The translations under genes and the position numbers were made by a program. The notes below the pieces were generated by a model. That model saw nothing but the letters and a program-made list of their open reading frames with translations, had not been told where the DNA came from and made no database searches. Of a stretch of DNA of 64,000 nucleotides, positions 13,773 through 52,726 are shown one piece after another; the first letter of the stretch is position 1, and the number at the start of each line of letters is the position of its first letter. The stretch comes from Thermoproteota archaeon (GTDB lineage: Archaea; Asgardarchaeota; Njordarchaeia; Njordarchaeales; Panguiarchaeaceae), in assembly GCA_024720975.1 (NCBI GenBank), contig JANJXX010000002.1, positions 112,763-176,762 on the forward strand. The letters are read 5' to 3'.

Positions 13773-13776
13773 CATC

Positions 13777-13989
13777 TTGATTAAGGAACGACTGTTTGTA
13801 GCACTTCTAACTGTTATTTTTCCGTGGGTTGCGCTTACCTTTGCAGTTCCGATAGCAGCTCTTTGCGTGTTTAAGGCTAGTGGAAACCAATATTTGGGTT
13901 ATTTTGTTGCACTATTGGTATTCGTTGTTTTTCTGATTAGCTGGTATCACTTAAGCATACTATTCCTGAGAAAAAATTTGGAACGATAG
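13777..13989 (+). CDS. Small membrane protein, hypothetical (70 aa)
   Basis: Two hydrophobic helices. The gene starts 4 nt after the preceding stop, so it is probably co-transcribed. Confidence 0.3.
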   Translation: MIKERLFVALLTVIFPWVALTFAVPIAALCVFKASGNQYLGYFVALLVFVVFLISWYHLSILFLRKNLER

Positions 13990-14018
13990 TTCGCATCAAG
14001 CATCTAGAAAATAGCTAG

Positions 14019-14207
14019 CTACGGTGGAAATAGATACCACATCGCGATGACGCCAAAAATCAAGAGAAATGCTGCGATAAAGACAAATCTTGGTCCAACT
14101 TTAGCGCCCTCAGGTGTTTCTTCATAGAATATAAGCAATCCTGCACCTGTTGGTGGTGTAGATAACCTATCACGAGACTTCTTCTTTTTCTCATCTTGCT
14201 TGGGCAT
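14019..14207 (-). CDS. secG: Protein translocase subunit Sec61-beta (SecG, archaeal)
   Basis: LSTPPTGAGLLIFYEE followed by a single C-terminal TM helix matches archaeal Sec-beta. The internal Met (MPKQDEKKKK...) is chosen as start, because the track start adds 20 unlikely residues. Confidence 0.65.
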   Translation of the reverse strand: MPKQDEKKKKSRDRLSTPPTGAGLLIFYEETPEGAKVGPRFVFIAAFLLIFGVIAMWYLFPP

Positions 14208-14272
14208 TTTTGACCTCCTGCTTGAGTAGGTATTATACTTAAGCATTGATTTAATTAAAGGCATCACGAAAA

Positions 14273-19057: not shown

Positions 19058-19918
19058 CTAACTTATGAGTTCGTAAATCGTTGGTGAATCATCTACATAG
19101 AATGTTTGAATGTCTTTTACTATTGTGACTAATCTCCCTGTCGTAGGATGAATAGAGCCGGGCATTCTTAGAAGTCTGTTCACATCTATTGTTACCTGCC
19201 GATCTACACGTGGTAACCGCTTTCTAACAGTTTTCCATATTTCGGCGACTTTTTTCTTCGCAGTGACATCAACTACATCAATTCTCCCGATTTGATCCAC
19301 CTTACCGAAGATTTTAAGTGCCCTTTTCTGCCAGTATAGAGGACGCCTAAAGTTTTCACCCTGAGGAGAGATCCATTCAACAATGGCTTCTCTTGCTTCT
19401 TCATCTAATTCCATGACTTCAGATGACTCTGAAACCCAACAGTGTAAACCACGTCTACCGCTGAAGACCCAGGTTATTTTTTCGAATCCAAAGTCCTCTC
19501 GTAGGGTCTCATCAATAAATATAGCCGAATCTCTCACAAGCGGCCAGCATTGCCTACACACGTGTTCCTTACCCTTTCCACAAGTACGTATGTCATCATA
19601 CTCTGTTAAGTCTAAATCAAAAATCAGCTCGTGTCCAAGCCACTTGAGCTGTGTAATGGACTGCCCCCTCGGTGGAGGATCATATAGACCACCTACAGAT
19701 ATAGCTTGAGGTATTTCCGACCGAACAAACCTTAGAAAATCGTCTGGTGTTTCAAAAGATCTATTTCTCGTGAAGATTTCTTTGTCATCTTTGATGAATA
19801 CGAAACCAAATTCTCTGTGATGGAATGTGCTTGGATCTATTATCTTAAACAACTGAGCTAGGGAGAACACATGCTTATAGAACTTTTCCAAGATATCAAT
19901 TGGTATCAACCTAACCAC
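19058..19918 (-). CDS. priS: DNA primase small (catalytic) subunit PriS
   Basis: Catalytic FDLDLTEYDD (the DxD of archaeo-eukaryotic primases) followed by a Cys cluster (CGKGKEHVCRQCWP). Confidence 0.8.
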   Translation of the reverse strand: MVRLIPIDILEKFYKHVFSLAQLFKIIDPSTFHHREFGFVFIKDDKEIFTRNRSFETPDDFLRFVRSEIPQAISVGGLYDPPPRGQSITQLKWLGHELIFDLDLTEYDDIRTCGKGKEHVCRQCWPLVRDSAIFIDETLREDFGFEKITWVFSGRRGLHCWVSESSEVMELDEEAREAIVEWISPQGENFRRPLYWQKRALKIFGKVDQIGRIDVVDVTAKKKVAEIWKTVRKRLPRVDRQVTIDVNRLLRMPGSIHPTTGRLVTIVKDIQTFYVDDSPTIYELIS

Positions 19919-20124
19919 TAGACAGCCAAGATGTGCTTTCTCGTCCTAGCTCTTGCTTTGACTAAAATCGTTTTGTTACAATTGGGACATGCAATCCTAT
20001 TGACCAATGCCAGTGCTGACGGCAGTGCCTGGTCACCGGACAGCCCCCAAACTTGACCACAATGTGGGCATACGACCCTTGCTTTGGCCTTTGCAGGTAT
20101 TCCAGGACCCGACCGCTCCTCCAT
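19918..20124 (-). CDS. Small zinc-ribbon protein (68 aa), hypothetical
   Basis: Two Cys pairs, CPHCG and CPNCN, form a Cys4 ribbon. Its stop overlaps the priS start, consistent with translational coupling. Confidence 0.35.
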   Translation of the reverse strand: MEERSGPGIPAKAKARVVCPHCGQVWGLSGDQALPSALALVNRIACPNCNKTILVKARARTRKHILAV

Positions 20125-20225
20125 AATGTCACCTGGCTAGTTCAATTTGATTCTAGCATTTTAATAAAAATCCGATGCTACAGATAATAAAAAGGTTTCC
20201 AAAGATAACATGAATTATTATACTA

Positions 20226-21443
20226 TCACTCAACTTGTTGAGCACTCTGTTGTTGTCGCTCTCCTAAGTTAATGATTTTGGTCTTATTATCTTCTTTATA
20301 AGCGAGGTATTTTACTCCTGCACTTCCCAGTTTGATTAATAGATCCTCTGTTGGATGCATATCCATGATTATCACGTGAATCTTAAAATCACTACTTGAG
20401 ATCATTTCAACTGAAGACTCGAGCAGCGTTAAAGCTCCAGAGAATATCTCCTCTAAGTTCTCATCCAAAGCTACGAATCTTTTGCTACCGACGATTTTCT
20501 CTAACTTTGCATCCAAGACTTCCTCAAGATTTTCAACTCGCTCAGCCTTGTATGCTTCTTCGAAGTGTTGCTCGAGGAGGTATTCCAATCTGCTGATATC
20601 AAGAGCTAGTTTCTCGGTCGATAATTTGTAGTCCAGCGCTTTCTTTATTTCCTTAAATGACAGCTCTTCGACTTCTTTGCCTCTAGGAGCTATTGCTACA
20701 TAGTCCACGTCCGCCGTTTGAAGCAACGATTTAAGTAAAAGTATACCGGCTCTATCACCATCAACAAAGACTGTTGTCGTTTTCTTTTTCGATAAATCAA
20801 TTATTGATTCAGGAATTTCACCGGAGCCTCCTACGGCGATTGCATTATCAAAGCCGTGCTTGAGTAGGTTTAATACATCTGCACGACCCTCTACTATTAT
20901 TATTTCATCCGACTTGAGTATTCCAACACCCGCGGGGAGTTTTTCAGGACCATAGGATATAATCTTAGACTTCTTAAGATGTTCCTCAACCAATCTAGGC
21001 ACTTTCTCTGGAGGAATTTTGGTTTTTTCGAAAGTATGCCAACTTGCCAGGATCTCACTCGCACGCTCGATTATGCTTCGTCGTCGCTCCTCCAGAACAT
21101 TTTCTATGGATTCTAGTTTTGTTTCAGCTTGGGCGGGCCCGATTTTATCGACTGTTTCTATAGCAGCCGCAAGCGTTGCCGCTTCGACTTTATTTAATGA
21201 GCATGGTATAGTTATCTCAGCATATGTCTTTCCCTCTCGATGAATTATTGACACTTCGATTCGTCCTATTCGACCCATATTCAGTAAGTTTTGGGGGTCG
21301 AGGTCTGGAGGCAATATACCCTCAAGCTGTCCAAATATCGCTCCTATGATATCGTTTCTTTCCACGAAACCATTAACTGTCATCCTGAATTTCAGTACGT
21401 ATTTAGAAAAGGGAACTCTATTCGAACTTGCCATTCTTATCAC
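20226..21443 (-). CDS. dnaG: Archaeal DnaG-type primase (Toprim domain; exosome-associated DnaG)
   Basis: The Toprim region IIIVEGRADVLNLLKHGFDNAIAVGGSGE...VFVDGDRAGILL carries a conserved Glu and DxD. Length is ~400 aa. Confidence 0.8.
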   Translation of the reverse strand: MIRMASSNRVPFSKYVLKFRMTVNGFVERNDIIGAIFGQLEGILPPDLDPQNLLNMGRIGRIEVSIIHREGKTYAEITIPCSLNKVEAATLAAAIETVDKIGPAQAETKLESIENVLEERRRSIIERASEILASWHTFEKTKIPPEKVPRLVEEHLKKSKIISYGPEKLPAGVGILKSDEIIIVEGRADVLNLLKHGFDNAIAVGGSGEIPESIIDLSKKKTTTVFVDGDRAGILLLKSLLQTADVDYVAIAPRGKEVEELSFKEIKKALDYKLSTEKLALDISRLEYLLEQHFEEAYKAERVENLEEVLDAKLEKIVGSKRFVALDENLEEIFSGALTLLESSVEMISSSDFKIHVIIMDMHPTEDLLIKLGSAGVKYLAYKEDNKTKIINLGERQQQSAQQVE

Positions 21444-22365
21444 CCATCATTTCCAAAATCTTGCTCACGATTAATCGCGAAACTGAGAGTTCATCGCGCA
21501 CAAAAGGATTGCTGACTGTATCCGTTGTTGCCATTTCGTCAACACCGCTTAGTAATAACCTATTGGCGGCGTCTTCTAGGAAAAGGCCATGGGTTCCATA
21601 CACAGCAATTTTACCTTTGAAACCTTCCCCGCGCAACCATTTAGCTACATTTGCTATTGTTCCCCCTGTAGCTATTATATCATCTAGAACAATAAAGCAC
21701 TTGATATAATTAATGGCAGTCTTTATTGATTCCTGATCAATGGGGCTATGTCCTAAGATTTTGCCTGTCTTAGGATCACGACGCTTTTCGAATACGTAAT
21801 ATTCGACCCCCGCGTAATCAGATACCTTCCTAACAAAACTTTCCCGTCCGCGGTCAGGTGCAATTATAGCAACTTCATCGCGGTGGTATTTGCTTGCAAT
21901 ATAATCGGCCCATAGTCTCTCTGTTGTTACATTTAATACGCTACTTCCAAATTGTTTGAAAGCATTTTCATTATGAACATCAACGGTTATCAGCTTGCTG
22001 ACACCTAATAGGAAAAATGTCTTAACTAGTGTAGTTGCGGAAATGGCCTCACCAGGCAGGAATCTTTTATCTTGCCGTGCGTAGGGGAGGTAAGGCCAAA
22101 CTAATATTATGTCCTCAATACCAAGATCCTTAAGAGTATCTACTATCAGAATTCCACGAAATATATTGGCATTTTGTTCCGGAAAGCCTCTTAAAATGAC
22201 AGTGTAAGTTCCCTTCTCTACCTCATTACAAAATCTTATATACTCTTCGCCATCCGGAAAAGTTTTATGCTCAATGCTAATTATTTTGAAGTTATGCTGC
22301 ACAAAAGGCTCGATTTTAAATTGTTCATAAAGCGGATCTTTGACGACATACATGCGCATGTTCAT
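21418..22365 (-). CDS. prs: Ribose-phosphate pyrophosphokinase (PRPP synthetase)
   Basis: PRPP-binding loop VLDDIIATGGTIANVA and the ribose-5-P region YLPYARQDKRF. The start is set at the internal MNMRM (22365), because the track start adds a hydrophobic extension that overlaps dnaG. Confidence 0.85.
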   Translation of the reverse strand: MNMRMYVVKDPLYEQFKIEPFVQHNFKIISIEHKTFPDGEEYIRFCNEVEKGTYTVILRGFPEQNANIFRGILIVDTLKDLGIEDIILVWPYLPYARQDKRFLPGEAISATTLVKTFFLLGVSKLITVDVHNENAFKQFGSSVLNVTTERLWADYIASKYHRDEVAIIAPDRGRESFVRKVSDYAGVEYYVFEKRRDPKTGKILGHSPIDQESIKTAINYIKCFIVLDDIIATGGTIANVAKWLRGEGFKGKIAVYGTHGLFLEDAANRLLLSGVDEMATTDTVSNPFVRDELSVSRLIVSKILEMMGDKNGKFE

Positions 22366-22488
22366 CACCGTAATACTAAACTTATTAATTGGCAGTGAGT
22401 GTTGACTAATGCTTATGAAACACAATGTAGTGATACTATACACAATTATGATACTTGATAGGCTATTTGCCAGCTACCTATACGAAAT

Positions 22489-25400
22489 ATGGTGCAAAAA
22501 TTGGATGAAAAAGCCATTAAACTCCAAATACCACCTAATCTAAAATATCCTGAGAGCTATAAACCATACTTTGAGGAACTCATAGAAAAAACACAAGATG
22601 CGTATAGAGTAGCATTAGAAGCTAGAAGCAAAGGTTATGACCCGCATACTAGACCTGAAATATCACTAGCCTTTGACCTAGCATCGAGAGTAGAAGCGTT
22701 AGTGGGACCAAAGGGTATAAGCGAACGGATAAGAGAGCTTCAAATGTCTGGTAAAGAGCTTGAGGAAATAGCGATTATAATAGCCAGCGAAATAGCCTCT
22801 GGTGCTTGGGAGTTACCAGAAAAAAACCCTGAAGCCGTCGCTGAGCAAGCATTGAGAACTTCACTTGCTATTGTCACTAATGGCGTTGTAGCAGCGCCTT
22901 TAGAAGGAATAGTCGCGGTTAAAATACGACCCGAAAATCACATGGCAGTATTCTATGCTGGACCCATACGATCAGCAGGTGGGACCGAAACCGCAATGAG
23001 TGTTCTACTGGCAGACATTATTAGAAGAACACTAGGGCTATCAAAATATAAAGCAACACAAGAAGAAATCGAGAGAATGGTTGAGGAAATATTTCTCTAT
23101 GACAGATATAGCAACCTGCAGCACCCTCCAAATCGAGAGGAAATTGTCTTTACCATGCAAAATATTCCCATAGAAGTCAATGGTGAAGGGATCGACAAAG
23201 AGGTCCAGATGTATCGTAAAGTGAGATATGTAGATACACCAAAAATACGCGGAGGCGCGGTTCTAGTTATAAATGATGGACTAATAGCAAAAGCGAAAAA
23301 ATTACTCAAGATCATTAGAAAATTTAATATAGATGGTTGGAATTGGTTGGAAGATCTTACAAAAACGAGTGACTCCAAGAACAGTAATGAAGAAACTAAA
23401 CAATCAGAAAATAGCAAAAGTGCTGCAGACAAGAGATTCAGAGTAGAACCAAATTACGCATACATGAATGAAATCGTCATAGGCCGGCCAATATTTGCTT
23501 CTCCTATGAAGCACGGTGGATTCAGATTAAGGTACGGAAGATCAAGAAATACCGGTTTAGCTGCAGTAGGTGTACATCCGGCTACGATGTACATTCTTGA
23601 AGAGTTCTTAGCCATATGCACGCAAATAAAGCCAGAAAGGCCAGGAAAAGGCGCTATAGTCACTCCAGTTGATTGCATAGAGCCACCGGTCGTGTTACTT
23701 AAAGATGGCTCAGTCATTAAAGTTGAAACCATCGAGGAAGCACAAAAAATACGTGAATACATCGAAAAGATATTGTTCTTAGGAGATATGCTCATAGGGA
23801 TCGGAGAGTTCCTGGAAAATAATCACGTGATTCTGCCTTCGCCTATCGTTGATGATTGGTGGGAGAAAGAGCTATTAGAAAGACTTTCACAAATAAACGA
23901 AAGCGCAAAATTTTTAGAGTACAAGGAGAAATCTTTGAAGGATCCTGAATTCATGGCCAAACTATCAGAAAAATTAGCTATTCCATGGCATCCTCGTTAC
24001 ACCTACTTCTGGAAAAATATATCAAAGGATGAATTAATTTACCTAGCCGAAAGAATTGCGAATTCACCAACTACTACAATTAACTTTGACGCATTGCTAA
24101 AAAAGATTCTAGAAAAACTTCTAGTAGAGCACAAGATTATTAATGGCAGCATCGTAATTAAGCCTGAGGATTTTGCTGCTCTTAAGATAATAGCCGATAA
24201 GGTGCTCGATAACAAAGAAAAAATTAAACTAACATATATCAATGCGCTAGAGGTGTTGCAAGAAATAGGACTTAAGATCTACGATAAGTACACCATTTTC
24301 ATTGGAGCTCGGATGGGAAGACCCGAAAAGGCAAAGCGACGAGAAATGAAACCACTTGTGCATGTACTATTTCCTATCGGAGAGGCGGGAAAAACCACAC
24401 GATCAGCGATACAAGCTATGGACAAAGAAAAGGTTTTCGAAATCGAAGCAAGTAGTATGTTCTGCAAAAAGTGCCGAAAGTTAACGTTTTATCCATTTTG
24501 CCCATCTTGCAAATCACGTACAGTTCCTGTATTTGTATGCACAAACTGCAAACAAATATTCACGCAACCCACTAAAAAATGCACGAAATGCAACAATCGA
24601 GTCTTGCCGTACACCAGATTCCAGGTAGATTTTAAGCAATTGCTAGCTGAGATTGAAGGGATACATGGAATAAAACCACCAAAAGATCTTAGATGTGTGA
24701 TAGGCCTTATATCCAAAAGAAAAATGCCAGAATACTTAGCAAAAGGCATACTAAGAGCGAAGTATGATCTATCAGTTTTCCGAGACGGAACTATACGGTT
24801 TGATGCCACAGACGCTCCGTTAACACACTTTAAGCCGGTAGAAATTGGGGTTTCTGTAGAAAAATTAAGAGAATTAGGATATACTCATGACATATACGGA
24901 AAGCCTCTAGAAGACTGTAACCAGATCCTGGAGTTGAAAGTTCAAGACATCATAATAAGCGAAACTGCTGCTGACTATCTCGTCAGAGTAGCACAATTCG
25001 TTGACGAACTTCTGGTAAAAGTCTATGGTCTCAAACCCTACTATAATGCTAAGGATAGATACAGCCTGCTGGGGCACCTAGTTATTGGTCTCGCACCCCA
25101 TACATCGGCGGGAATATTGGGCCGTATTGTAGGATTTACGAAAGCAAAATGCATCTTTGCCCATCCATATTGGCATGCAGCTAAAAGAAGAAACTGCGAC
25201 GGTGATGAGGACTCAATAATGCTTCTACTCGATGCTCTTATTAACTTCTCGAAGGAGTACCTACCGAAAAGCCGGGGCGGAAAGATGGACGCTCCTCTCA
25301 TAGTGACAGTAATATTAAACCCCTTGGAGGTTGATTCCGAAGTTTACAATCTGGACACAATGAGAGAAATACCGCTCGAATTTTATAGAAAATCACTTAA

Positions 25401-26037
25401 TTATCCCGAGCCCTCTGAAATTGAAAGCATCATAAACAATGTTGAGAAGAGATTAAACACACCAGAGCAGTATGTAAATCTTCATTTTTCAGTAGATACC
25501 TCCCAGATAGATCTAGGACCTATAACCACCGCCTATTCTAGAACTAGAAGCATATTAGATAAGCTTACAAAGCAAATAAATCTAATGAAGAAAATCGCCG
25601 CCGTAGATTATGCAGATTCCGTCGGAAGGATTCTAGACGGTCACATCCTCAGGGATATTTTTGGTAACTTAAGGTCGTTTGGTACACAAACATTCAAGTG
25701 CACGAAATGCAGAAGGACTTACAGAAGAATGCCCATAACTGGCAAATGTCCCTCATGTGGAAATACTCTTCAGCTATCAGTATATATAAACATGATTCTG
25801 AAGTTCTTTAATACAGCTAACGAGATAGTCGACAACATGAGTGAAGAAGATTATAGATCGCAACAATTTAGCAGATTCCTAGCAACGGATTATAGAGTTT
25901 TACGCCCAGCTATAAAAGATTTGGCTGAGACATTAGCAAGTAATGATCTTGAAAACAATAATATTAGAAGGAACAAAAACGAAAATACTGCAGTAGTAAG
26001 GAAAATAAAGGTGAATCTATCAGACTTTTTCAGCTGA
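22489..26037 (+). CDS. polC: DNA polymerase D (PolD) large catalytic subunit DP2
   Basis: Length 1182 aa with the catalytic double-psi-barrel motif NCDGDEDSIMLL and zinc-binding Cys clusters (CKKCRK...CPSCK, CTNCKQ...CTKCN, CTKCRR...CPSCG). No intein. Confidence 0.9.
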   Translation: MVQKLDEKAIKLQIPPNLKYPESYKPYFEELIEKTQDAYRVALEARSKGYDPHTRPEISLAFDLASRVEALVGPKGISERIRELQMSGKELEEIAIIIASEIASGAWELPEKNPEAVAEQALRTSLAIVTNGVVAAPLEGIVAVKIRPENHMAVFYAGPIRSAGGTETAMSVLLADIIRRTLGLSKYKATQEEIERMVEEIFLYDRYSNLQHPPNREEIVFTMQNIPIEVNGEGIDKEVQMYRKVRYVDTPKIRGGAVLVINDGLIAKAKKLLKIIRKFNIDGWNWLEDLTKTSDSKNSNEETKQSENSKSAADKRFRVEPNYAYMNEIVIGRPIFASPMKHGGFRLRYGRSRNTGLAAVGVHPATMYILEEFLAICTQIKPERPGKGAIVTPVDCIEPPVVLLKDGSVIKVETIEEAQKIREYIEKILFLGDMLIGIGEFLENNHVILPSPIVDDWWEKELLERLSQINESAKFLEYKEKSLKDPEFMAKLSEKLAIPWHPRYTYFWKNISKDELIYLAERIANSPTTTINFDALLKKILEKLLVEHKIINGSIVIKPEDFAALKIIADKVLDNKEKIKLTYINALEVLQEIGLKIYDKYTIFIGARMGRPEKAKRREMKPLVHVLFPIGEAGKTTRSAIQAMDKEKVFEIEASSMFCKKCRKLTFYPFCPSCKSRTVPVFVCTNCKQIFTQPTKKCTKCNNRVLPYTRFQVDFKQLLAEIEGIHGIKPPKDLRCVIGLISKRKMPEYLAKGILRAKYDLSVFRDGTIRFDATDAPLTHFKPVEIGVSVEKLRELGYTHDIYGKPLEDCNQILELKVQDIIISETAADYLVRVAQFVDELLVKVYGLKPYYNAKDRYSLLGHLVIGLAPHTSAGILGRIVGFTKAKCIFAHPYWHAAKRRNCDGDEDSIMLLLDALINFSKEYLPKSRGGKMDAPLIVTVILNPLEVDSEVYNLDTMREIPLEFYRKSLNYPEPSEIESIINNVEKRLNTPEQYVNLHFSVDTSQIDLGPITTAYSRTRSILDKLTKQINLMKKIAAVDYADSVGRILDGHILRDIFGNLRSFGTQTFKCTKCRRTYRRMPITGKCPSCGNTLQLSVYINMILKFFNTANEIVDNMSEEDYRSQQFSRFLATDYRVLRPAIKDLAETLASNDLENNNIRRNKNENTAVVRKIKVNLSDFFS

Positions 26038-29255: not shown

Positions 29256-29486
29256 ACCTTTAGAACGTTCCAGTGAACTAAGAAAAAATTCGACTATTAT
29301 TATCTAACAATATATAAAAGCCGCCTCAATGAGGGCCCATTAACCTTGCTTAGTATGTCAAGCATATTAAAGATTAGTGGCTTCTAACATTGCAAATGCG
29401 TCTAGGCATTTGGGGCTAAGAGGCTTGGCCTATCAACCGAAGAGAAGATACTATGCAGAACCGTTTGGTAATATTAATCTGAGAGA

Positions 29487-29569
29487 TGCGGGGGGCGGGA
29501 TTCGAACCCGCGTAGGCATTCGCCACAGGGTCCTCAACCCTGCCCGTTTGACCACTCCGGAACCCCCGC
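29487..29569 (-). tRNA. tRNA-Leu (anticodon GAG), class II with a long variable arm
   Basis: The reverse strand reads GCGGGGGTTCCGGAGTGGTCAAACGGGCAGGGTTGAGGACCCTGTGGCGAATGCCTACGCGGGTTCGAATCCCGCCCCCCGCA. It has a 7-bp acceptor stem, an anticodon loop TTGAGGA, a variable-arm hairpin GGC-GAAT-GCC, a T-arm GCGGG-TTCGAAT-CCCGC and discriminator A. No CCA is encoded. Confidence 0.85.
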
Positions 29570-29644
29570 ATGTCGTTAAAAGCTTGAGTAAGATTTATAT
29601 CAAACCCAAGCTTAAATTTATGAAAGCATTAGTTATTTAAAATA

Positions 29645-32149
29645 GTGCACTTTCATGCATGTTGCTTCGCCTTTATCGAACTTCCCTCATACCACTCTAA
29701 GGGGTCCTGCTTGGTTTCTAAAAGTTTTGAGCTCATTAAATACCTGTTAGGGGACGACATTATAACTGAAATCGAACACGGCACACACAGGAAAAAAATA
29801 GCTATGAAGCTCTTAGATAATTTACACCTTCTAAGGCTATTTCCACCTCTTAGGGATCTTCTTCCTGCTCTTGCAGCATCTCTCTTCGAGCCCCCTACTC
29901 ATAGATTAACCCTCATAGAAAAATTTATAATAGAAAGAGGGCTACTCTCACGAGTATGGATTAAGGATACAGCCACCGAAGAACTCCTTGGAAAGACCAT
30001 TAAATTAATACAAGATCTTAGTCATGATACCCTGCTGAAGATATTGGCTGTGATCATGAAGAACTACGCTACAACAAGCGAACTAGAATCGCGACTCGAT
30101 CATCTTATTGATATGACTTTTACTCTGTATGCTCGCGCAGGGAAGTTCGATCTAACCGCACCCAAACTTTTTCCATCACCAAAATTTTTATCAGAAATTA
30201 CAAAGTGCAAAGAACTTGAGGCAAATCCTGATGAAATTATTAACGAGGCTATAAGGACTACATGCAGAATCCTGCCCAAGCGTCTGCTTAGTTATTTGGA
30301 CTTTGCACTCAGAATCTTAACTGGTATAAGCTTGAGGGAGCTATCTTCAAATACTATATCTAAGTTACTCTTTAGTGAACGATTGGAAGCCATAAAGATT
30401 GTATGCATCATCGCGATGCTATACGCCGGATCTTTTTCTCCTGATAGATTAAGAGAACAAATCAGGCTAAGCCTGTTAGAGTTTCTCATTCGGGAATACA
30501 TTACATCCAACGACAACATGGTTCATGGCTGGCTAATCTCGTTACTGTTAACGGTGAGCGCATCTAGAGAAGAGCTACTTAACCTTCTAACAATATATAA
30601 GCTCGCTTCAGTCCATGGAGGAAAAGTAATGCTAAGGCTTCTCGAAACATTATTCGAAAACTCTAATGCCTACCTAATTGCTTGCATGCTAATGCTCTTA
30701 ACTGCACATCACAACGATGAACTAGAGGCCATAAGCTCACTTGCAATTTCAAGAAACAGTACTAGACTTAGGCTTATTAACAGCATACTCATTAAATCCG
30801 ATCTTAAACCTCACGGATTGACTGCACCTATCCCCTGGGAGCTATATGGTTCCATCGATAAACTCCTTAGAAGTTGTAAATCAGCGATTACATATTACAA
30901 AAATTTATACATCCAGCCACCAAGAAACTTATTAAGACTTGACAAATTTCTAGAAAGTGCGAATAACATGATAAACCTCGAGCTTGAGGAGACAACCAAC
31001 ATAGAGGAACTCAAGCAGAAACTTGAACTTACGCTAGAAACTCTAAGTAGAGGTTATGCTTTCACTAGTGAAATGATAAGAACCTTTGGAATGCTGCCAG
31101 GATTCTTCCAAACAATTAATGCTGTAAGGAACACCTGTAAAAAGCTTAGCGATAGGTGGGAATACACACTTACAAAGGACTATCTAAATTTAGTCACCAA
31201 GCATCGAGATTTGTTCACGATATCATCTCTTGATGCTGTTCAAAGGGAACAGGAACCTATAATCTCCTTAATTATTGATGGCCTCCGCTTCGATGATCTA
31301 ATTTTGCGGTTACTACCTAAGCTTAAAAAGCGCGGCTTTAGACTCATACAGGGGGGAGCGAAAATCTCTTTGCTACCATCAATAACGACGGTATCAAGAC
31401 GAGCTATAATATCTGGAGAACTTCCCCAGCTGCTAGCCTTCTCTAAAACATCCCTAAAGAGAGAAGACGAAATCCTACTGGGTAGATTCGGACAAAATAT
31501 CGAGTCTTACTACGGACCAGTGGCAACTGTTTATAGCAAATTCTCAGAAAGAGAGTATCACTCAAACAAAGTGTTCATAGTACTCAGTGAGCTCGAAAAA
31601 TCTATGCACGGATCATCAGAAAAAATCCTAGCACATTTCGTGGATGAATATCTACATAGTATCGTTGAACTGATAATGTATCTAGTAACATCGATTACAA
31701 GAAAGCATAAAAAGATACGGATTCTTATATGTTCAGATCATGGTCTAAGCGCATTTGTGAAGTTTTATGACTTATCAATTTTCCTAGAAAAGCTAACAAA
31801 CAAAAAACTCACTGATCCTTCATTGGAGCCGCTAATCAAGGAACGATTTGCCCTCATTCCATTAAGAAACCCGCAACAGATATTAGAAGCCCAGCAAATT
31901 TACAGTTCCGAGGAAGAGTTTCGATACTCGTTTTGGTTATTACCTGCAGATAGTCTTGGCTTCAAGGAAATAGAGTTTTATCTGAAAGGAACGAAGACTC
32001 TAGCGAAAACTTGTCCCTCATCAAGAGTTGTAATAATATTTCCGAAGGGCGACAGGAAACTTATAAGTGGTAAGGGCGCCATATATCACGGAGGTTTATC
32101 ACCGGATGAAACATTTAGCGCCTATGCCTTACTCTCTTATGATGCTTAA
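29645..32149 (+). CDS. PglZ-domain protein (alkaline-phosphatase superfamily C-terminal domain, large alpha-helical N-terminal region; BREX PglZ-like architecture)
   Basis: The C-terminal ~290 aa carry LIIDGLRFDD, then PSITTVSRRAIISGELP (the nucleophile-Thr region of PglZ / nucleotide-pyrophosphatase-like enzymes), then ILICSDHGLSAF (a (S/T)DHG metal ligand) and a terminal AIYHGGLSPDETFSAYAL (HGG.s..E). The N-terminal ~540 aa are Leu-rich and helical. The precise start is uncertain, as the first Met lies immediately after the tRNA. Confidence 0.55.
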   Translation: MHFHACCFAFIELPSYHSKGSCLVSKSFELIKYLLGDDIITEIEHGTHRKKIAMKLLDNLHLLRLFPPLRDLLPALAASLFEPPTHRLTLIEKFIIERGLLSRVWIKDTATEELLGKTIKLIQDLSHDTLLKILAVIMKNYATTSELESRLDHLIDMTFTLYARAGKFDLTAPKLFPSPKFLSEITKCKELEANPDEIINEAIRTTCRILPKRLLSYLDFALRILTGISLRELSSNTISKLLFSERLEAIKIVCIIAMLYAGSFSPDRLREQIRLSLLEFLIREYITSNDNMVHGWLISLLLTVSASREELLNLLTIYKLASVHGGKVMLRLLETLFENSNAYLIACMLMLLTAHHNDELEAISSLAISRNSTRLRLINSILIKSDLKPHGLTAPIPWELYGSIDKLLRSCKSAITYYKNLYIQPPRNLLRLDKFLESANNMINLELEETTNIEELKQKLELTLETLSRGYAFTSEMIRTFGMLPGFFQTINAVRNTCKKLSDRWEYTLTKDYLNLVTKHRDLFTISSLDAVQREQEPIISLIIDGLRFDDLILRLLPKLKKRGFRLIQGGAKISLLPSITTVSRRAIISGELPQLLAFSKTSLKREDEILLGRFGQNIESYYGPVATVYSKFSEREYHSNKVFIVLSELEKSMHGSSEKILAHFVDEYLHSIVELIMYLVTSITRKHKKIRILICSDHGLSAFVKFYDLSIFLEKLTNKKLTDPSLEPLIKERFALIPLRNPQQILEAQQIYSSEEEFRYSFWLLPADSLGFKEIEFYLKGTKTLAKTCPSSRVVIIFPKGDRKLISGKGAIYHGGLSPDETFSAYALLSYDA

Positions 32150-33909: not shown

Positions 33910-34191
33910 CTATACAATACTTTTTATAGCCTCTACGATTCGCTTTCCCCTGTCTGTTATCCTTATTGTCCATGCATTAACTCTTGGAGTTATCTTCTTT
34001 ACAGCAATTCTAACAAGACCAACTTCAGCCAGGAGTAAAACTGCCTTTCTCACTGCTTTATACTTTGAAAAGCCCAAGTGAATCAATATGTCAGTGAGCT
34101 TCATTTCCCCGTATTTGTCTAGGAGGTATAGCACTAATACTGAAAATGGCGAAGAGAGTGCTTGTAGTATAAGCTCTAGACTCAAATACAA
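33910..34191 (-). CDS. Small winged-helix transcription regulator (ArsR/TrmB-like), 93 aa
   Basis: Winged-helix-like pattern (LTDILIHLGFSKYKAVRKAVLLLAEVGLVRI...). Transcribed divergently from the ORF-free region. Confidence 0.5.
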   Translation of the reverse strand: MYLSLELILQALSSPFSVLVLYLLDKYGEMKLTDILIHLGFSKYKAVRKAVLLLAEVGLVRIAVKKITPRVNAWTIRITDRGKRIVEAIKSIV

Positions 34192-34502
34192 CCCCCAATA
34201 ATCATAGAGTAAAAATAGTTAGAAAGACTTAAAAACGTAGAATACGAAACATGAGGCACTGCATTGACTCTAATAGATCCCAGAAAAACACAGAACTAAA
34301 GTCTCTTAATGTATACAATAAGACGATTTAATAATAGTCTGATACTGTGAATTTCACAAAAGGGTGTTTCAACCTATTACATTTAGCCAACAAAAATCAT
34401 CAGTAAGCACCCTGTATAACAGACATCAACTTCACAAGTGCCACTTCCTGTGAACAAAACTTGTTAACTTTGCGAATCTATTGAACCTAGCTAGCATCGT
34501 TT

Positions 34503-34521
34503 CTCCAGTGGAAATGGGGGG
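34503..34521. promoter_or_regulatory. Origin-recognition-box (ORB)-like element: CTCCAGTGGAAAT followed by GGGGGG
   Basis: The dyad core TCCAGTGGAAA is followed by a G-string. This matches the ORB consensus bound by Orc1/Cdc6 at origins of Pyrococcus and Sulfolobus. It lies in a ~1 kb ORF-free AT-rich spacer. Confidence 0.45.
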
Positions 34522-35241
34522 TCTTGAAAAAACAGACTAGAATCAGACTTTCAGAGACAATATAATTGCTAGAGGCATATCTGAAAGGCTCAACAGTTTC
34601 TACAAGAACTCAGTGACCCAAGTGAATCCCTGTAGACCCCTGGTCTTCCTATATAGTTAATATCAACATATTTGTGAATCGTGCTGTTATACGTGAACTA
34701 TACGCGAAGCATATCCTAGTTTCACATTCTCTAACTTCCAATAGTGAAGTTAACTATCCACCTAACAGCTTAGATTTTAGTTCCATGATTGAATGCTTCT
34801 TCTCTGTAGAAAGTCGTCTTTGGCGGGGCTTTTTGTTATTGGTGTTCGGATGTTATTGGGTGCTTCAATGGAATTTAAGGGGTCATCACATTCACTTGCG
34901 AAGATAGTTAGGTAAATAAGGATTCCTGTAAATTGCCCATGGTGGGAGAATGTCGTTGTATTTGTCCTCAGCTGGTGCCATATGTAAGTCAAGTAGCAAA
35001 ATTGTCTGATTAACTGCCGAAGTATGGCATTAATTGATTTAGGAGACTTTCACTCGAGGATAAATTACTGACTCCTATTTCCCTAAAGTATTATCTACAC
35101 TGCTTGCTCATGGTTTTGATTCTGTGAAAGTTAGATAGCTTAGCATATCTATTCGTGTATTCGTTGCGTATAACGTTCGATATACACTTCACTTTAATTT
35201 CACTGCATGATGATTACCATTGGTAATCTTGGTAGGACTAG

Positions 35242-35724
35242 ATGCCGACATTGAATATTAAAGTGAAAGTAGGAGATACTGAGGTAGAAGTTAAAGCAGA
35301 TGGTACTTTGGATAAGGAAACTATTCATGCTATTAGGAGCATCTTAGCCCCTCTCGCGTCTAGAATTCCGTCTGCCGCTGCTGTTAGGGACAATGCTAGT
35401 CTGAATAATAACACTGATGACATTGCTGTAAATAGTCAGGATGCATTTGTGAGGAATGTTAACTTGTATGCCAAATTTAAGGAACTAATGCTTAACGTGT
35501 TCAAGCTTGGACAGTGGTTTACGTCTATTGATGCTAAAGAAGTGTTCCATGATACTTATGGGATCCTTCTGAAGTCGTCAACTGTGACGACATATCTCCG
35601 TCGTATGGAGGATGAAGGGCTACTGACGTCTAAGAGACAAGGACGCCTATTGCAGTTTAGGATTTCAGCAGTTCCTCTCTATGCAACTCTTGCAGAATCG
35701 GAATTTAATGAACTTAAAGCTTAG
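35242..35724 (+). CDS. Hypothetical protein with a C-terminal winged-helix DNA-binding domain (160 aa)
   Basis: C-terminal TYLRRMEDEGLLTSKRQGRLLQFRI is winged-helix-like. The N-terminal part has no recognisable family. Transcribed away from the ORF-free region. Confidence 0.45.
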   Translation: MPTLNIKVKVGDTEVEVKADGTLDKETIHAIRSILAPLASRIPSAAAVRDNASLNNNTDDIAVNSQDAFVRNVNLYAKFKELMLNVFKLGQWFTSIDAKEVFHDTYGILLKSSTVTTYLRRMEDEGLLTSKRQGRLLQFRISAVPLYATLAESEFNELKA

Positions 35725-46197: not shown

Positions 46198-48138
46198 TTA
46201 GTCTTCTGGCACCAGAAGCCATGGAATTTCGCAAATGCTGTCTACGAAAAATAGCTTTGTTGGTATGCCTGTAGATAAATCTATTTTCAGTTTGCCCACT
46301 AAGCATAGTTCCTTGCCGAGAAGTTTCTGCAAAAGGAGTTGAGTATCGATCGTATTGGAGGTAATCCCAAGTTTTTTCAGCTCTGATATGGGTACTATTC
46401 CAGTTTTCTCAGAGAAACCATCATCAATAGTTATTGAAGCAACATTTTTTTCATCAACATACCCAGAATGGCCCATCTCACAAATTTGCTTAGCTGGATT
46501 AATTATTAAGCCACCACACTTTTTGCAAAACTGCATCTTTCCGATCCACTCGATTCCTGTTACTGTTCCAATAATGCGAGATTGCTTGCCGAGGCTTAGA
46601 TCATCGAGTGTCTTAACTCTCTCTACTTGATTACTAGAAGGTGCTCTTGCATATTCAAATTCTCTTGCGATTACATCAAATTGTGTGGATGGTGTTGATA
46701 GCAATACCAACGTGTCTTCATCCCCTTTAGATCGCTCAACACGCACGTTTGTTATCTTCACCAGTGCATTTAAATAGTCCTTAGCATGTTTGAAGTTCTC
46801 TGAGTCCCATACCAGCATCTTCAATGTCTTAGTTCCATCTGTTAATTTTAAAACCCCATAAAGTTTTCTGCTCTTAACTTCCTCAGCGCCAACAATTTTG
46901 CATATTACGTTTACGTAGGTATTTTGACTAATTGCATGAAAGCTTGTAACTACTGGTCGAGCTACAAGCAGTTTTGGCGTACCTTCGTCACTGGCAATCT
47001 CCAGGTAGCCACTGCTCCTATGTACATGTATTTTTAGTTGATCGCCGGAGAACTCCAGCATACCGAATATTGTTAATCTATCCTCAGCTCGTATCCTAGC
47101 TAGATCTTCCAAAAAATTCTCATTCCAGACAAGTACCCTTACTCTAGTGCCGTCTTGCAAATTACCAACGAGAATAGCATATCTACCAGTTTGGCCATTT
47201 TTCTCATATGTACCGAATCTAGGAGGGCTTCTTATAACTAGAGAGTACTTCCACCAACCGCGATCTCCAACTACTTCCGGAGGAACAAATTCAGGGTCCC
47301 TTCTATTAAATACCGTAAGATTTCTAGCAATAATGCGCCGAGTATTTTCAAATTTGCGAGTGAACAAACAGTGGGCTTCGATTATATCTCCAGGCTTTGC
47401 ATGTATTTTTGTGAATTCGTCGGTTGCATTACCATAGAGTGTGCAGCGCACCTTAGTTTTACAAAAATCATTTAAACTCCCAAGTAGGATTTTTTTACCT
47501 TGTTTTGGGTGTTTTTCCTCGGCTTCACCCATGTATATAGCTATCACATGTAGATAACTTCTGTCGGCTATATCTTTTCTAAGAATATCTTGTATGTCAT
47601 AGAGTCTTATCGCTGGGAGTTTGTAGTTGAGTAACTCTTCTGCAGCTCTAGCATCAATAAGATGTATTGAGCTATATTTGCTGACAATAAGCCTCGGCTG
47701 GCCGTTTGGCAATATTCCTGAACACTTTACATTCTCTAGGATTATAGCTGAACCTATATGTATACTAGGCAATAGATTCACGTCGGGAAAGCTTTTTAGA
47801 ATATACGCCTGAGCCGTCCCGGAATCATCGGTTAGTAGGATTAATGCCAGGCGTGAACCTTGCATGAAAAATCTTATCGATTCTACGATACCCAGAACAG
47901 AAATTCCGCGTGCTCCACTTTTTATGTGTTTTATTTTATTAAGGGTTCGGCGAATCTTCAGCAGCTTAATTAAATCCGCTACTCTATCTGCTAGATTGTA
48001 TTGGGATATAATTTCAAGTATAGCGATATCATCATCAACGCGATACCTACTTTTTATCTCTTCAATAAGGCTCTTTATTTCATCTCTTCTTTTTCCTAGA
48101 ATGATACTCAGTTGATCAAGTATCTTTTCAATTAACAT
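46198..48138 (-). CDS. rpa: Replication protein A-like single-stranded DNA-binding protein (multiple OB folds plus zinc ribbon)
   Basis: 646-aa protein with repeated OB-fold-like segments and a Cys4 ribbon (CKKCGG...C...H). The architecture resembles euryarchaeal/thaumarchaeal RPA and not the short crenarchaeal SSB. Confidence 0.5.
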   Translation of the reverse strand: MLIEKILDQLSIILGKRRDEIKSLIEEIKSRYRVDDDIAILEIISQYNLADRVADLIKLLKIRRTLNKIKHIKSGARGISVLGIVESIRFFMQGSRLALILLTDDSGTAQAYILKSFPDVNLLPSIHIGSAIILENVKCSGILPNGQPRLIVSKYSSIHLIDARAAEELLNYKLPAIRLYDIQDILRKDIADRSYLHVIAIYMGEAEEKHPKQGKKILLGSLNDFCKTKVRCTLYGNATDEFTKIHAKPGDIIEAHCLFTRKFENTRRIIARNLTVFNRRDPEFVPPEVVGDRGWWKYSLVIRSPPRFGTYEKNGQTGRYAILVGNLQDGTRVRVLVWNENFLEDLARIRAEDRLTIFGMLEFSGDQLKIHVHRSSGYLEIASDEGTPKLLVARPVVTSFHAISQNTYVNVICKIVGAEEVKSRKLYGVLKLTDGTKTLKMLVWDSENFKHAKDYLNALVKITNVRVERSKGDEDTLVLLSTPSTQFDVIAREFEYARAPSSNQVERVKTLDDLSLGKQSRIIGTVTGIEWIGKMQFCKKCGGLIINPAKQICEMGHSGYVDEKNVASITIDDGFSEKTGIVPISELKKLGITSNTIDTQLLLQKLLGKELCLVGKLKIDLSTGIPTKLFFVDSICEIPWLLVPED

Positions 48139-48165
48139 TTGATTAACCTTATCTCGGTGGTAGTT

Positions 48166-48801
48166 ATGAGTGATAGCTCATTTGAGGAGTCATTGGAACA
48201 CACTGATCTTAATGTAAAGTGTCCCTTATGTGGATTATCATCGCTTAGGATCTTTTATAGATCAGTGGATGTGCCTTACATAGGAGCAATGCTTGTATCT
48301 ACAATTATCTGTAACAATTGTGGATTTAAGGTATCAGATTTTTGGATGATATTCGAGGAGGGCAAGTACGAAGATTATCAAAGTGTTAGGGTGACGCAAT
48401 CAACGATGGGGGATTTGGTCTGTGCAAGTACCGGCTCAAAGATCATCATACCTGAGATTGACACTGAAATTCAAGTAATCACTTTTGATGCTCAACACAT
48501 AACAACGATAGAGGGAGTTCTTCGAGAGCTCAAGACTTATGTTGAGGCGATGCTTGATACGGCGGAGGATAAAACCAAAGCTAAAAAAATACTCGACGTG
48601 CTAAACGAGGAATTGGAAAATCCATCTGGTAGACTTACTTTGATGTTAAGTGATCCTAAAAAGCACAGTGCTGTTATACCAAGAGAATATTGGGTTAGGC
48701 GCGTCGAGCAGGAGAGAAAATTCCCCAAGAGCTTTCTAGATGCTGTTGCTGGGAGTATCATTGAAAAATGGAAGAGTGTACTAAAAAATTTCAACCCTTA
48801 A
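48166..48801 (+). CDS. ZPR1-type zinc-finger protein
   Basis: Two CxxC pairs with ZPR1-like spacing (CPLCG...IPYIGAMLVSTIICNNCGFK). The start is set at the internal MSDSSFEE, because the track start would abut the divergent rpa start with 0 nt spacing. Confidence 0.55.
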   Translation: MSDSSFEESLEHTDLNVKCPLCGLSSLRIFYRSVDVPYIGAMLVSTIICNNCGFKVSDFWMIFEEGKYEDYQSVRVTQSTMGDLVCASTGSKIIIPEIDTEIQVITFDAQHITTIEGVLRELKTYVEAMLDTAEDKTKAKKILDVLNEELENPSGRLTLMLSDPKKHSAVIPREYWVRRVEQERKFPKSFLDAVAGSIIEKWKSVLKNFNP

Positions 48802-49600
48802 TAAGAGTTTGTCTAGTTTTTTCCAGGCGAATTACGTCAGTGAGAATTATTACTAGCGTAAATAGAGTAATAATCAGGAGGAGTTGAGCATATATATTAT
48901 TTTGAAATATCATGATCCCTTGACTTAATGCAAAGTATGCTACTGCGAAAAACATCAGCGATAATAACAAAGCTACGTAGAAAGCTTTCGGTGCATCTAC
49001 TGTACGTATAAAAAGCTCATGTGTGAGTTTGGAAAGTGATCTTCTGGCATTTAAGATGAGCTTAGTAAGTTGCTCGGTTTCACTTGAGGGTATTCTTCTT
49101 GCAATTTGACTCATTTGGTCTTCCATACGATCGATGTGCTCTCTGTGTTCTTCAGTAATCTTAATGTAGATTCTCGATATAAAAGCTCCAGAGTAGAATA
49201 TTATAGTCGCCAGTATGAAGAGGATTAGCGTTGAAAACGCTAAGGGTTCTACGTATGGTGCTAAGTTTGATGCAGTAATTCGCTTAGTAACCAATAATAC
49301 GTACCCAAAAGATGCAAATATTAAAATCCAACTCAGAAATAGACGGGTCACGTATATTATAAACTGTCGTAGGCCGAAAATTATGAGTCCAGTGAAGAGT
49401 ATCCCCATAGAAAGCGCCACGAAGGTTGCTTTTTCCACTGTTTGAATCCACTGAGGATTTATTACTTCGAAGGCTTCTAACCATATTAGGACTCCGGCGC
49501 ATACTTGTGATATCAGAGCAAATAATGCAAATACGTGAGCAGCGCCAGATGTTCTAAATTTTCCGAGTGCCTTAGAAACTCGTGATGGCATCCTAGGCAC
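48791..49600 (-). CDS. Membrane protein, hypothetical (~6 predicted TM helices)
   Basis: Hydrophobic 269-aa ORF. No family recognised. Confidence 0.3.
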   Translation of the reverse strand: MPRMPSRVSKALGKFRTSGAAHVFALFALISQVCAGVLIWLEAFEVINPQWIQTVEKATFVALSMGILFTGLIIFGLRQFIIYVTRLFLSWILIFASFGYVLLVTKRITASNLAPYVEPLAFSTLILFILATIIFYSGAFISRIYIKITEEHREHIDRMEDQMSQIARRIPSSETEQLTKLILNARRSLSKLTHELFIRTVDAPKAFYVALLLSLMFFAVAYFALSQGIMIFQNNIYAQLLLIITLFTLVIILTDVIRLEKTRQTLIKG

Positions 49601-49840
49601 CTATTTAGTATCAAACAGAAAGATGTACTATAATTAGAATTAAAGGGAAGAATCAGAAAGCATAAACGGTTATAGGTGAACTAAGGTTAAAATTGAGCAC
49701 AGAGAAGTTGTTCATCGGTTCCCTCGGATGCGTGGACTTTATAACTACATAATTCCCGTGGTAATTAGGAGGAGTTATTCTCTATGAGCTGCTGGGCACA
49801 TAGATGATCCCAAGAGGGCTTAATTAGCTGAGCAGTTCTG

Positions 49841-52507: not shown

Positions 52508-52726
52508 CCGATGTTATGTGAGTCTATCATGTAATGATTTGTTTTAAAGCTTTGGCACTCAGCAAGAGTAAATCCAAAGTAGAGTGAGAAATTTCAACAT
52601 GGTGGGGACATATAAAACCTTCCAGTATTCCGATTTGAAAAATTGATGTCTCACTAGTAAGCTTAGCTGAACGATAGGTATAGAAAGAGAAAAAAGATCC
52701 AAGAAAGCAGCTAATATGTAATGTTC

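Follow-up and report, generated by a model that had tools for sequence, protein, structure and literature searches.

A probable chromosomal replication origin with origin recognition boxes and no neighbouring orc1/cdc6 gene in a Njordarchaeia-type archaeon

The subject of this analysis is a 1050-nt intergenic gap (34192–35241) in a 64,000-nt stretch of archaeal chromosome, hereafter the window, which carries an array of origin recognition boxes (ORBs) and probably represents a chromosomal replication origin. Coordinates are positions in the window, and L-numbers designate the related loci or contigs with which it was compared. The gap holds no open reading frame (ORF) longer than 77 codons, gene callers working on at least five related assemblies placed no gene in it, and it is the largest intergenic gap of the window, the next largest measuring 500 nt; the unusually long, ORF-free spacer of about 1050 nt reported in the initial annotation is thereby confirmed. 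It is bordered on each side by a small gene predicted to encode a winged helix-turn-helix (wHTH) protein. The elements on which the argument rests are as follows (aa, amino acids).

34192–35241, no strand: the whole putative origin region; ORF-free, the largest gap, with conserved blocks and the skew extremes inside
34503–34525, plus strand: ORB1, perfect dyad core and G-string, CTCCAGTGGAAATGGGGGGTCTT; identified by sequence match and conservation in relatives
34635–34656, minus strand: ORB2, inverted and degenerate, the minus strand reading CTATATAGGAAGACCAGGGGTC; positional homologue of good ORBs in relatives
34657–34862, no strand: the ORB2–ORB3 interval of 206 bp, putative zone of MCM loading and unwinding; proposed from conserved spacing and the G-C minimum inside it
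34863–34884, plus strand: ORB3, CTTCAATGGAATTTAAGGGGTC; identified by alignment with relatives
35242–35724, plus strand: 160-aa origin-linked protein with an N-terminal beta-hairpin and helix, a disordered linker and a C-terminal winged helix; described from its AlphaFold model and from homologues downstream of ORBs
33910–34191, minus strand: 93-aa winged-helix protein (HxlR/MarR/ArsR-like) on the other flank; model with a predicted local distance difference test score (pLDDT) of 88 and a TM-score of 0.78 to HxlR/MarR-type regulators

The sequence CTCCAGTGGAAATGGGGGG was found at 34503–34521, where a perfect ORB core followed by a G-string had been claimed, and the 11-mer TCCAGTGGAAA occurs as one exact copy in the 64 kb, both strands considered, against an estimated chance expectation of about 0.03. 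The spacer contains two further ORBs, one on each strand. ORB3 shows three mismatches to the dyad core (TCCAsTGGAAA) and carries the GGGGTC string, and together with ORB2 it forms an inverted pair whose dyads face the 206-bp interval and whose G-strings point outward. Numerous copies away from the origin, which the initial annotation would have taken as the mark of a generic regulator site, did not turn up: besides the single exact core copy in the window, no ORB was detected outside the origin gap in four related 20-kb loci, and, judged by this distribution, the motif is not a scattered regulator site.

Alignment of the gap with the orthologous gaps of L011/L012 and L015, whose flanking proteins are 64% identical, revealed that most of the spacer has diverged or been deleted while discrete blocks are kept; the conserved core spans approximately 34420–34900, and the left 230 nt show no conservation. 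ORB1 is retained as CTCCAsTGGAAATGrGGGGtcT in L011, L015, L060, L065, L081 and L086–L089, good inverted ORB2 copies are present in L015 (CTCCATAGGAAATATGGGG), L065 (CTCCACTTGAAATCAAGGGGGTC), L081, L060 and L087–L089, and the position and orientation of ORB3 are preserved in all examined Njordarchaeia-type (Njord-type) loci except L086. The order ORB(+)/ORB(-)/ORB(+) before a homologous wHTH gene is accordingly seen in L011/L012, L015, L060, L065, L081, L087, L088 and L089, with two ORBs detected in L086, so that eight of the nine other lineages carry the triplet. This order persists even though the identity of the wHTH protein (149–181 aa in the nine lineages) drops to 26–36% and the rest of the spacer becomes unalignable. 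In L060, L065 and L081, from Njord-type or related Asgard metagenome-assembled genomes (MAGs), a gap of about 0.9–1.3 kb consists of ORB(+), 45–110 nt, ORB(-), 229–244 nt at 70–80% AT, ORB(+) and the wHTH gene, here encoding 149–175 aa with 28–34% identity to the 160-aa ORF.

The long contigs L086–L089 place the triplet (the two ORBs in the case of L086) directly upstream of the wHTH gene, with no other ORB in these 20-kb loci and no orc1/cdc6 within 10 kb on either side. They keep a conserved housekeeping synteny: PriS-RLI-GNAT-HTH-amino-acid kinase, then the origin, then wHTH-OMP decarboxylase-Pelota-EndA-MiaB-like-Lhr. Within the species, one single-nucleotide polymorphism falls in the 464-nt core and eight in the remaining 586 nt of the gap, numbers too small to weigh.

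A long spacer with conserved blocks could also be read as the source of one or more non-coding RNAs, the more so as the corresponding gaps of L060, L065 and L081 have tRNA genes at their far edge. The gap itself, however, contains no Rfam family at the gathering threshold, only noise at E-values up to 5, and no tRNA according to ARAGORN; the conserved core does not fold more stably than shuffled sequences on either strand (z = +0.62 and -0.04), and the conserved blocks are short repeats and palindromes. The likelihood of an RNA-coding gap is therefore considered close to negligible.

Beyond the window, the 19-mer CTCCASTGGAAATGRGGGG was searched for in a collection of one genome per species (185,579 species genomes, mostly bacterial) and recovered at 67 loci, 61 of them archaeal, five bacterial and one unlabelled, with an estimated chance expectation of about 17 for the whole collection. 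The share of archaeal loci, set against that expectation, marks the 19-mer as a widely distributed archaeal ORB. The window's own sequence is not among the 67 although it contains the pattern, the species being absent from the collection or the stretch masked. L071 has an orc1/cdc6 gene between two inverted copies, and such a gene is present in four further 8-kb chunks; the resulting low count, an Orc1 ORF in five of the 8-kb chunks around the 67 loci, is uninformative, because the match need not lie in the middle of its chunk and some matches are coding. In L034, L035, L047 (Poseidoniales), L020 and L067 the 19-mer lies inside a conserved ORF of about 770 aa with conserved flanks, where it is coding and not an intergenic origin element.

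Strand composition changes polarity at the same place. Inside the gap lie the minimum of the cumulative G-C count (34804), the maximum of the cumulative A-T count (34626) and the maximum of the Z-curve MK component (34767), the first of them in the ORB2–ORB3 interval. Because raw skew also follows the direction of transcription, it was measured at third codon positions on the plus strand (GC3 skew). Left of the gap, plus-strand genes have a GC3 skew of -0.04 and minus-strand genes one of -0.10, and right of it the values are +0.17 and +0.11, respectively; the best change point lies between the two genes flanking the gap, with a statistic reached in 0 of 5000 gene-order permutations (p < 1/5000). 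In a weighted regression on third positions the side-of-gap effect amounts to 0.100 ± 0.013, compared with 0.021 ± 0.013 for gene orientation. The polarity switch that had been proposed as a check near 34.5 kb is thus present, and it persists at third positions for both gene orientations.

The sign of the switch is that of an origin, with a cumulative G-C minimum and a would-be leading strand enriched in G and T; the G-C-minimum criterion was previously used for Ca. Odinarchaeum (PMC9246712). In related 10–20-kb loci the left skew is more negative than the right in eight of eight, a result given little weight because it is confounded by conserved gene orientation. In principle the same switch might also arise at a terminus, at the breakpoint of a recent inversion or where gene orientation changes, with the ORB as a chance match or a relic. 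The view is limited to 64 kb, and raw GC skew is partly driven by transcription (an effect of 0.088 in the regression over all positions). Such a boundary would nevertheless have to carry the sign of an origin and an effect strongest at third positions in both gene orientations, next to an ORB triplet conserved across lineages, which is unexpected for a relic, and this explanation appears far-fetched.

The predicted structures of both flanking proteins match winged-helix folds, in agreement with the initial annotation. In the AlphaFold model of the 160-aa protein residues 65–141 have a pLDDT of about 90 and match PadR/ArsR/BlaI folds, whereas the N-terminal part is of low confidence. The protein matches no Pfam or NCBIfam family at threshold: Penicillinase_R scores 21.1 bits against a cutoff of 22.6, over the wHTH only, and NCBIfam models stay far below their cutoffs. 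Assignment to the BlaI/MecI/CopY (Penicillinase_R) or ArsR/PadR repressors was rejected, as the scores fall below thresholds and the N-terminal beta-hairpin and helix are unlike those families, with which the protein shares only the wHTH fold. A relationship to the winged helix of Orc1, to Cdt1/WhiP or to plasmid Rep proteins was likewise rejected, since nothing beyond the generic fold was found; the yeast Cdt1 C-terminal domain appears only at rank 19 (E 0.016) among generic wHTH matches.

The 93-aa gene is conserved only in the closest relatives, and therefore probably lies outside the origin module. The corresponding flank differs in L060, L065, L081 and L086–L089, and the 93-aa protein is not similar to the small HTH proteins encoded close to other Njord-type origins.

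The wHTH family of the 160-aa protein extends well beyond Njordarchaeia. In an exhaustive HMMER search, proteins of matching size and architecture emerged as remote relatives, with 45 representatives below 1e-10; the groups that encode them include Nezhaarchaeales, Bathyarchaeia, Thaumarchaeota and Halobacteriota, among others. In L092 the genes DP1-orc1/cdc6 are followed by a 718-nt gap with four ORBs and then by wHTH-NurA-HerA, and in L091 (Nezhaarchaeales) three ORBs lie no more than 1.3 kb upstream of the wHTH gene. In a metagenome scan with the family, 49 loci extended far enough upstream to be assessed, and 45 of these have the remote homologue facing a divergent orc1/cdc6 gene across a gap of 556–841 nt with at least two ORBs. 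ORB density in these loci is 2.04 per kb in the 1.2 kb upstream of the wHTH gene and 0.026 per kb elsewhere.

A second repeated element accompanies the ORBs. The hexamer TGTGAA/TTCACA occurs seven times in the 1050-nt gap and 25 times in the other 62,950 nt, an approximately 17-fold enrichment, at the following positions.

34346–34358, no strand: TGTGAA-T-TTCACA palindrome
34431–34454, no strand: palindromic pair TTCACA-N12-TGTGAA upstream of ORB1; the N12 layout also occurs in L011, L015 and L087
34673–34678, plus strand: TGTGAA within the ORB2–ORB3 interval
34721–34726, minus strand: TGTGAA (plus strand TTCACA) within the ORB2–ORB3 interval
35123–35128, plus strand: TGTGAA upstream of the wHTH gene

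Except for the shared N12 layout, these rows come from the repeat count in the window. In a k-mer screen of six Njord-type gaps TGTGAA/TTCACA ranks top, with 35 observed occurrences against 2.1 expected and presence in all six, and, as an independent replication, in 42 orc1-linked gaps TGTGAA was counted 162 times against 18.9 expected, in 41 of the 42 loci. At ORB 19-mer loci in other archaea, its enrichment is confined to those with an ORF of the wHTH family nearby (4.7 per kb, compared with 0.53 per kb). The combination of wHTH gene, ORBs and TGTGAA spans groups with only about 25% protein identity within the family. On this comparative evidence, the wHTH family and TGTGAA form a pair that accompanies ORB origins in no fewer than three archaeal groups.

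Taken together, the ORBs, their conserved layout, the skew switch and the orc1-linked counterparts support the interpretation of the gap at 34192–35241 as an ORB-type chromosomal replication origin, to which we assign a probability of about 88%. Among the features that define an ORB-type oriC, the ORB elements, an inverted ORB pair and a skew switch were all found, the pair mainly through positional homology because the window's ORB2 is degenerate. An adjacent orc1/cdc6 gene was not: Pfam scans of essentially all ORFs of at least 185 aa detected none in the 64-kb window, and none lies within at least 29 kb on either side of the gap. The initial annotation had stated that the window lacks this gene and had proposed an origin unlinked to its initiator, and both statements agree with a window devoid of orc1/cdc6 and a gap with canonical ORBs.

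It should be noted that a number of observations weigh against this interpretation or narrow its reach. The evidence is comparative and compositional throughout, and Orc1/Cdc6 as the cognate initiator is an assumption, none being encoded in the 64 kb. The window's ORB2 retains only the GGAA half-site and the GGGGTC string, with more than three mismatches to the dyad core. The gap had been described as visibly more AT-rich than its surroundings; its 62.7% AT exceeds the 59.6% of the whole window and falls in the top 5.6% of 1050-nt windows, but it lies below the 65.7% of the window's other intergenic DNA, so that the description does not hold, and the ORB2–ORB3 interval has 62.6% AT compared with 70–80% in the relatives L060, L065 and L081. 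The skew switch is local, seen over 64 kb, and need be neither the global minimum nor the mark of the sole origin. In the P0005 lineage (L016–L018, 47% identity) the tRNA endonuclease gene is followed after 87 nt by the wHTH gene, and these contigs of 2–3 kb show no long gap or ORB.

The association of the wHTH family with ORBs and repeats has its own exceptions, which belong to the same side of the balance. No ORBs accompany the wHTH gene of L093 (Methanohalarchaeum), four of the 49 metagenome loci depart from the linkage, and these loci are phylogenetically related, so that the counts overstate their independence. No universal spacing of TGTGAA pairs exists across lineages: TTCACA-N12-TGTGAA is found in four of ten Njord-type loci, and a direct spacing of 9 nt is common. 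At L029 4278–5599, in a MAG labelled Nitrososphaerota with Njord-like Lhr-MiaB synteny, a gap with an ORB and six TGTGAA is accompanied by a VapBC-like pair in the place of the wHTH gene, and the 8-kb chunk contains no member of the family.

Comparison with characterized origins places the locus closest to the oriC1 type. In Sulfolobus oriC1 three ORBs are bound by polar Orc1-1 monomers, with ORB2 and ORB3 inverted around the unwinding region and each required for firing, whereas most of the sequence of the DNA-unwinding element (DUE) is dispensable and an accessory motif, ucm, bound by the non-initiator protein UBP, is essential (PMC12141716). The window resembles it in possessing three ORBs composed of dyad and G-string, two of them inverted around the presumed initiation region, and an extra non-ORB motif in or near the origin, TGTGAA with a candidate binder in place of ucm and UBP. 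It differs in that oriC1 lies beside orc1-1, in that the 130-bp ORB3-DUE-ORB2 unit with a highly AT-rich DUE corresponds here to a 206-bp spacer that is not markedly AT-rich, and in the accessory component itself. UBP, which binds more than 300 sites, is a beta-hairpin saddle protein of 111 aa whose gene lies elsewhere, while the window has multi-copy TGTGAA and a linked wHTH gene.

Similarities to the Pyrococcus/Thermococcales oriC include inverted ORBs, a PolD gene in the neighbourhood (DP2, 9 kb away here) and the first 14 nt of ORB1 (CTCCAGTGGAAATG), identical to P. furiosus ORB2, an element tested for Cdc6/Orc1 binding (PMC1904270). The Pyrococcus origin is unlike the window in its 34-bp ORBs with a G-string 8 nt further from the dyad, its many 13-bp mini-ORBs and its position directly upstream of cdc6/orc1-dp1. 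The Bathyarchaeia-type metagenome loci (L092 and L094–L173, uncharacterised) share with the window the wHTH family on one flank, two to four ORBs and TGTGAA repeats, in a gap of 0.56–0.84 kb, but keep orc1/cdc6 and DP1 on the other flank, where the window has the 93-aa wHTH gene, and differ in the pattern of ORB orientation.

An adjacent orc1/cdc6 gene is typical of archaeal ORB-type oriC without being universal. The oriC1 of Aeropyrum pernix is an ORB origin not adjacent to its orc genes, and we know of no linked wHTH family or TGTGAA array there. Its lineage and neighbours differ from those of the window, but it likewise has a short ORB (about 22 bp; PMC1904270) with the G-string close to the dyad.

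The initial annotation had drawn an analogy to Sulfolobus oriC3, which does not depend on Orc1/Cdc6 for firing but requires WhiP, a Cdt1-like protein with tandem winged helices (PMC3607249). The two do share a location away from orc1/cdc6 and beside a winged-helix gene. The locus described here nevertheless has canonical ORBs, and its neighbour encodes a single generic winged helix without specific similarity to Cdt1; neither a tandem winged-helix Cdt1-like initiator nor independence from ORBs was found, and the analogy is not supported. Since the locus is ORB-based and matches orc1-adjacent oriC, it is better described as an oriC1-like origin whose initiator gene has relocated. Its wHTH neighbour, ORBs and TGTGAA repeats, all shared with orc1-adjacent oriC, suggest that it probably corresponds to the ancestral oriC of other archaea, with orc1/cdc6 displaced in Njordarchaeia. 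Loss of the initiator gene from an ancestral oriC appears to be the simplest history, and capture of a foreign origin a less simple one.

Such a capture would nonetheless account for the missing orc1/cdc6 gene. In its full form this explanation takes the gap for the origin of an integrated plasmid or virus, an alternative already raised by the initial annotation, or for a captured secondary origin, as proposed for Sulfolobus oriC2/oriC3, with the wHTH protein as a Rep-like initiator. An origin-linked DNA-binding gene recalls WhiP beside oriC3 (PMC3607249), and in L086 and L029 the origin borders on mobile or defence genes. The window, however, contains no integrase, att-like repeats or tRNA target at the gap borders; blastn against plasmid and phage collections gave no match for the gap, and comparison with plasmids, phages and 2.9 million viral contigs revealed no similarity for either the DNA or the 160-aa protein, which has no relatives in viral contigs. 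Mobile genes and a patchy distribution are likewise missing at the locus, whose housekeeping synteny (PriS, RLI, EndA, MiaB-like, Lhr) is class-wide. Canonical ORBs, an orc1-linked homologous locus elsewhere and a lone generic winged helix without specific Cdt1/WhiP or Rep similarity also fit poorly with an acquired replicon, and we regard this origin of the locus as highly improbable.

The promoter-proximal part of the gap contains further conserved elements, listed below, that bear on regulation of the wHTH gene.

34686–34708, no strand: left arm of a 23-nt inverted repeat, with ATACGC; from a repeat search
35152–35174, no strand: right arm of the 23-nt inverted repeat, with GCGTAT, 70–90 nt upstream of the wHTH start; possible operator
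35182–35198, plus strand: invariant block ATACACTTCACTTTAAT, fully conserved in the window, L011 and L015

The block ATACACTTCACTTTAAT is, from its sequence and position, likely the TATA element or promoter of the wHTH gene; a scan for sigma-70 promoters and terminators is uninformative in an archaeon. GCGTAT/ATACGC is enriched in all six analysed Njord-type gaps, with an equivalent promoter-proximal position in L060 and L081; in Bathyarchaeia-type gaps, with 7 occurrences and 11.6 expected, it shows no enrichment. The motif is possibly an operator specific to the lineage. Partly in the form of ATACGCGTAT palindromes, it recurs 50–90 nt upstream of the wHTH start in the window, at L011 4910–4937, at L060 around 6550 and on the minus strand of L081 around 6740.

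These elements bring forward the possibility that the ORB-like boxes are operators for Orc1/Cdc6-type proteins, for the flanking winged-helix proteins or for both, and that the gap is a long divergent promoter region and not an initiation site. A non-initiator Orc1 of this kind is known, as Orc1-2 acts as a transcription regulator in Sulfolobus (PMC9738581). Small divergent regulator genes stand on both flanks of the gap, the wHTH gene is closely preceded by GCGTAT and the conserved TATA-like block, ORB3 is only 25–150 nt from the wHTH start in most relatives, and DUE-like AT-richness is weak in the window. On the other hand, a promoter region leaves unexplained the strand-composition switch exactly at the gap, independent of gene orientation, the occurrence of the homologous locus in other phyla as an orc1/cdc6-adjacent ORB cluster, and the inverted ORB pair with its conserved spacing of 206–245 bp. 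Moreover, regulation and origin function are compatible with each other. A promoter region in place of an origin thus seems very unlikely.

For the replication origin, a mechanism may be proposed by analogy with characterized systems. An Orc1/Cdc6 protein encoded elsewhere in the genome would bind ORB1, ORB2 and ORB3 as monomers with defined polarity, and MCM loading and the first duplex opening would take place in the ORB2–ORB3 interval, from which forks would depart both ways. Opening would most likely occur at the most AT-rich 40-mer of the interval (34650–34691), which has 75% AT, abuts ORB2 and belongs to the top 2.6% of 40-nt windows; binding, loading and opening at these positions are inferred from the layout. 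The segment 34290–34345, which had been offered as a candidate unwinding element, has 73% AT and is, on comparative grounds, unlikely to be that of the origin, because it lies in the non-conserved left part of the gap and is deleted in the relative L011.

The TGTGAA/TTCACA repeats around ORB1 and in the interval would constitute a second class of protein-binding site, probably recognised by an accessory protein. The simplest assumption would be that TGTGAA is bound by the winged-helix protein encoded at 35242–35724, presumed dimeric, which would then assist or regulate the origin or be a regulator coupled to it. It is also conceivable that this protein acts in transcription only, for instance as a regulator with its promoter embedded in the origin.

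It is tempting to extend this proposal to the whole family of beta-hairpin and winged-helix proteins of 130–180 aa, which may be an unrecognised origin-associated factor of several archaeal phyla that recognises TGTGAA among ORBs and derives from an ancestral module of orc1, ORBs with TGTGAA, and wHTH. We put this forward tentatively, at somewhat less than even odds. If true, Njordarchaeia would have kept the pairing of wHTH gene and origin while orc1 moved, which would tie the protein to the origin DNA itself and not to regulation of orc1. An accessory origin factor of this kind would be the second such component known in archaea after UBP/ucm.

In the literature searched, no published mapped replication origin was found for Njordarchaeia, and for Asgard archaea generally only a skew-based guess, that for Ca. 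Odinarchaeum (PMC9246712); the searchable literature also gave no description of the wHTH-gene and TGTGAA module. The locus thus offers a precise and testable predicted oriC, with three ORBs and a candidate loading zone of about 200 bp, in a lineage relevant to the debate on eukaryote ancestry. Origin finders that rely on adjacency to orc1/cdc6 would miss it.

As regards the source of the sequence, identical copies of the 160-aa protein are encoded on several hot-spring MAG contigs labelled "Crenarchaeota archaeon" by NCBI, relatives with 64% identity (L053, the same as L011) are labelled Candidatus Njordarchaeota, and all named members of the protein's family belong to Njordarchaeales or Njordarchaeia. 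PolD in the window speaks against Thermoprotei, and the genome was accordingly taken to be of Njordarchaeia type. The placement of Njordarchaeia is debated, either within Asgard or beside Korarchaeota.

The window is rich in information-processing genes, including those for a tRNA-splicing endonuclease, RNase P Pop5, RLI, PriS, DnaG, PolD DP2, an RPA-like protein, Lhr and a Topo VI-B-like protein. Each flank of the origin carries a cluster of replication and repair genes (19058–26037 and 46198–54604), as listed here.

19058–19918: PriS
20226–21443: DnaG
22489–26037: PolD large subunit DP2
46198–48138: RPA-like OB-fold protein
49841–52507: Lhr helicase
52727–54604: Topo VI-B-like protein

Other Njord-type origins are likewise accompanied by PriS, RLI, EndA, a MiaB-like radical-SAM protein and Lhr. 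In L086 (Njordarchaeales) PIN-domain, AAA_15/SMC-like and small unknown genes of defence-like or mobile-like appearance are inserted right beside the origin (6288–9540). The tRNA genes at the far gap edge occupy L060 5370–5825, L065 2790–2900 and L081 7310–7660, some apparently containing introns as judged from the sequence; the window has the 93-aa wHTH gene in that place.

Within the window, the second-largest spacer (13773–14272, 500 nt) lies upstream of a TFB gene (14273–15196, minus strand). An 834-aa ORF at 29645–32149 on the plus strand resembles a PglZ domain only weakly (27.6 bits); further BREX-like genes were not seen, and relatives have an 816-aa homologue at the same place. The 834-aa ORF adjoins the window's single tRNA gene, tRNA-Leu(GAG), at 29485–29570 on the minus strand. 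In assembly GCA_024720935 (L005 4132–5219 / L008 1917–3004) the aspartate/ornithine carbamoyltransferase gene beside the endonuclease is called as two ORFs of 195 and 133 aa, with about 230 nt of extra sequence, possibly reflecting a pseudogene or an insertion.

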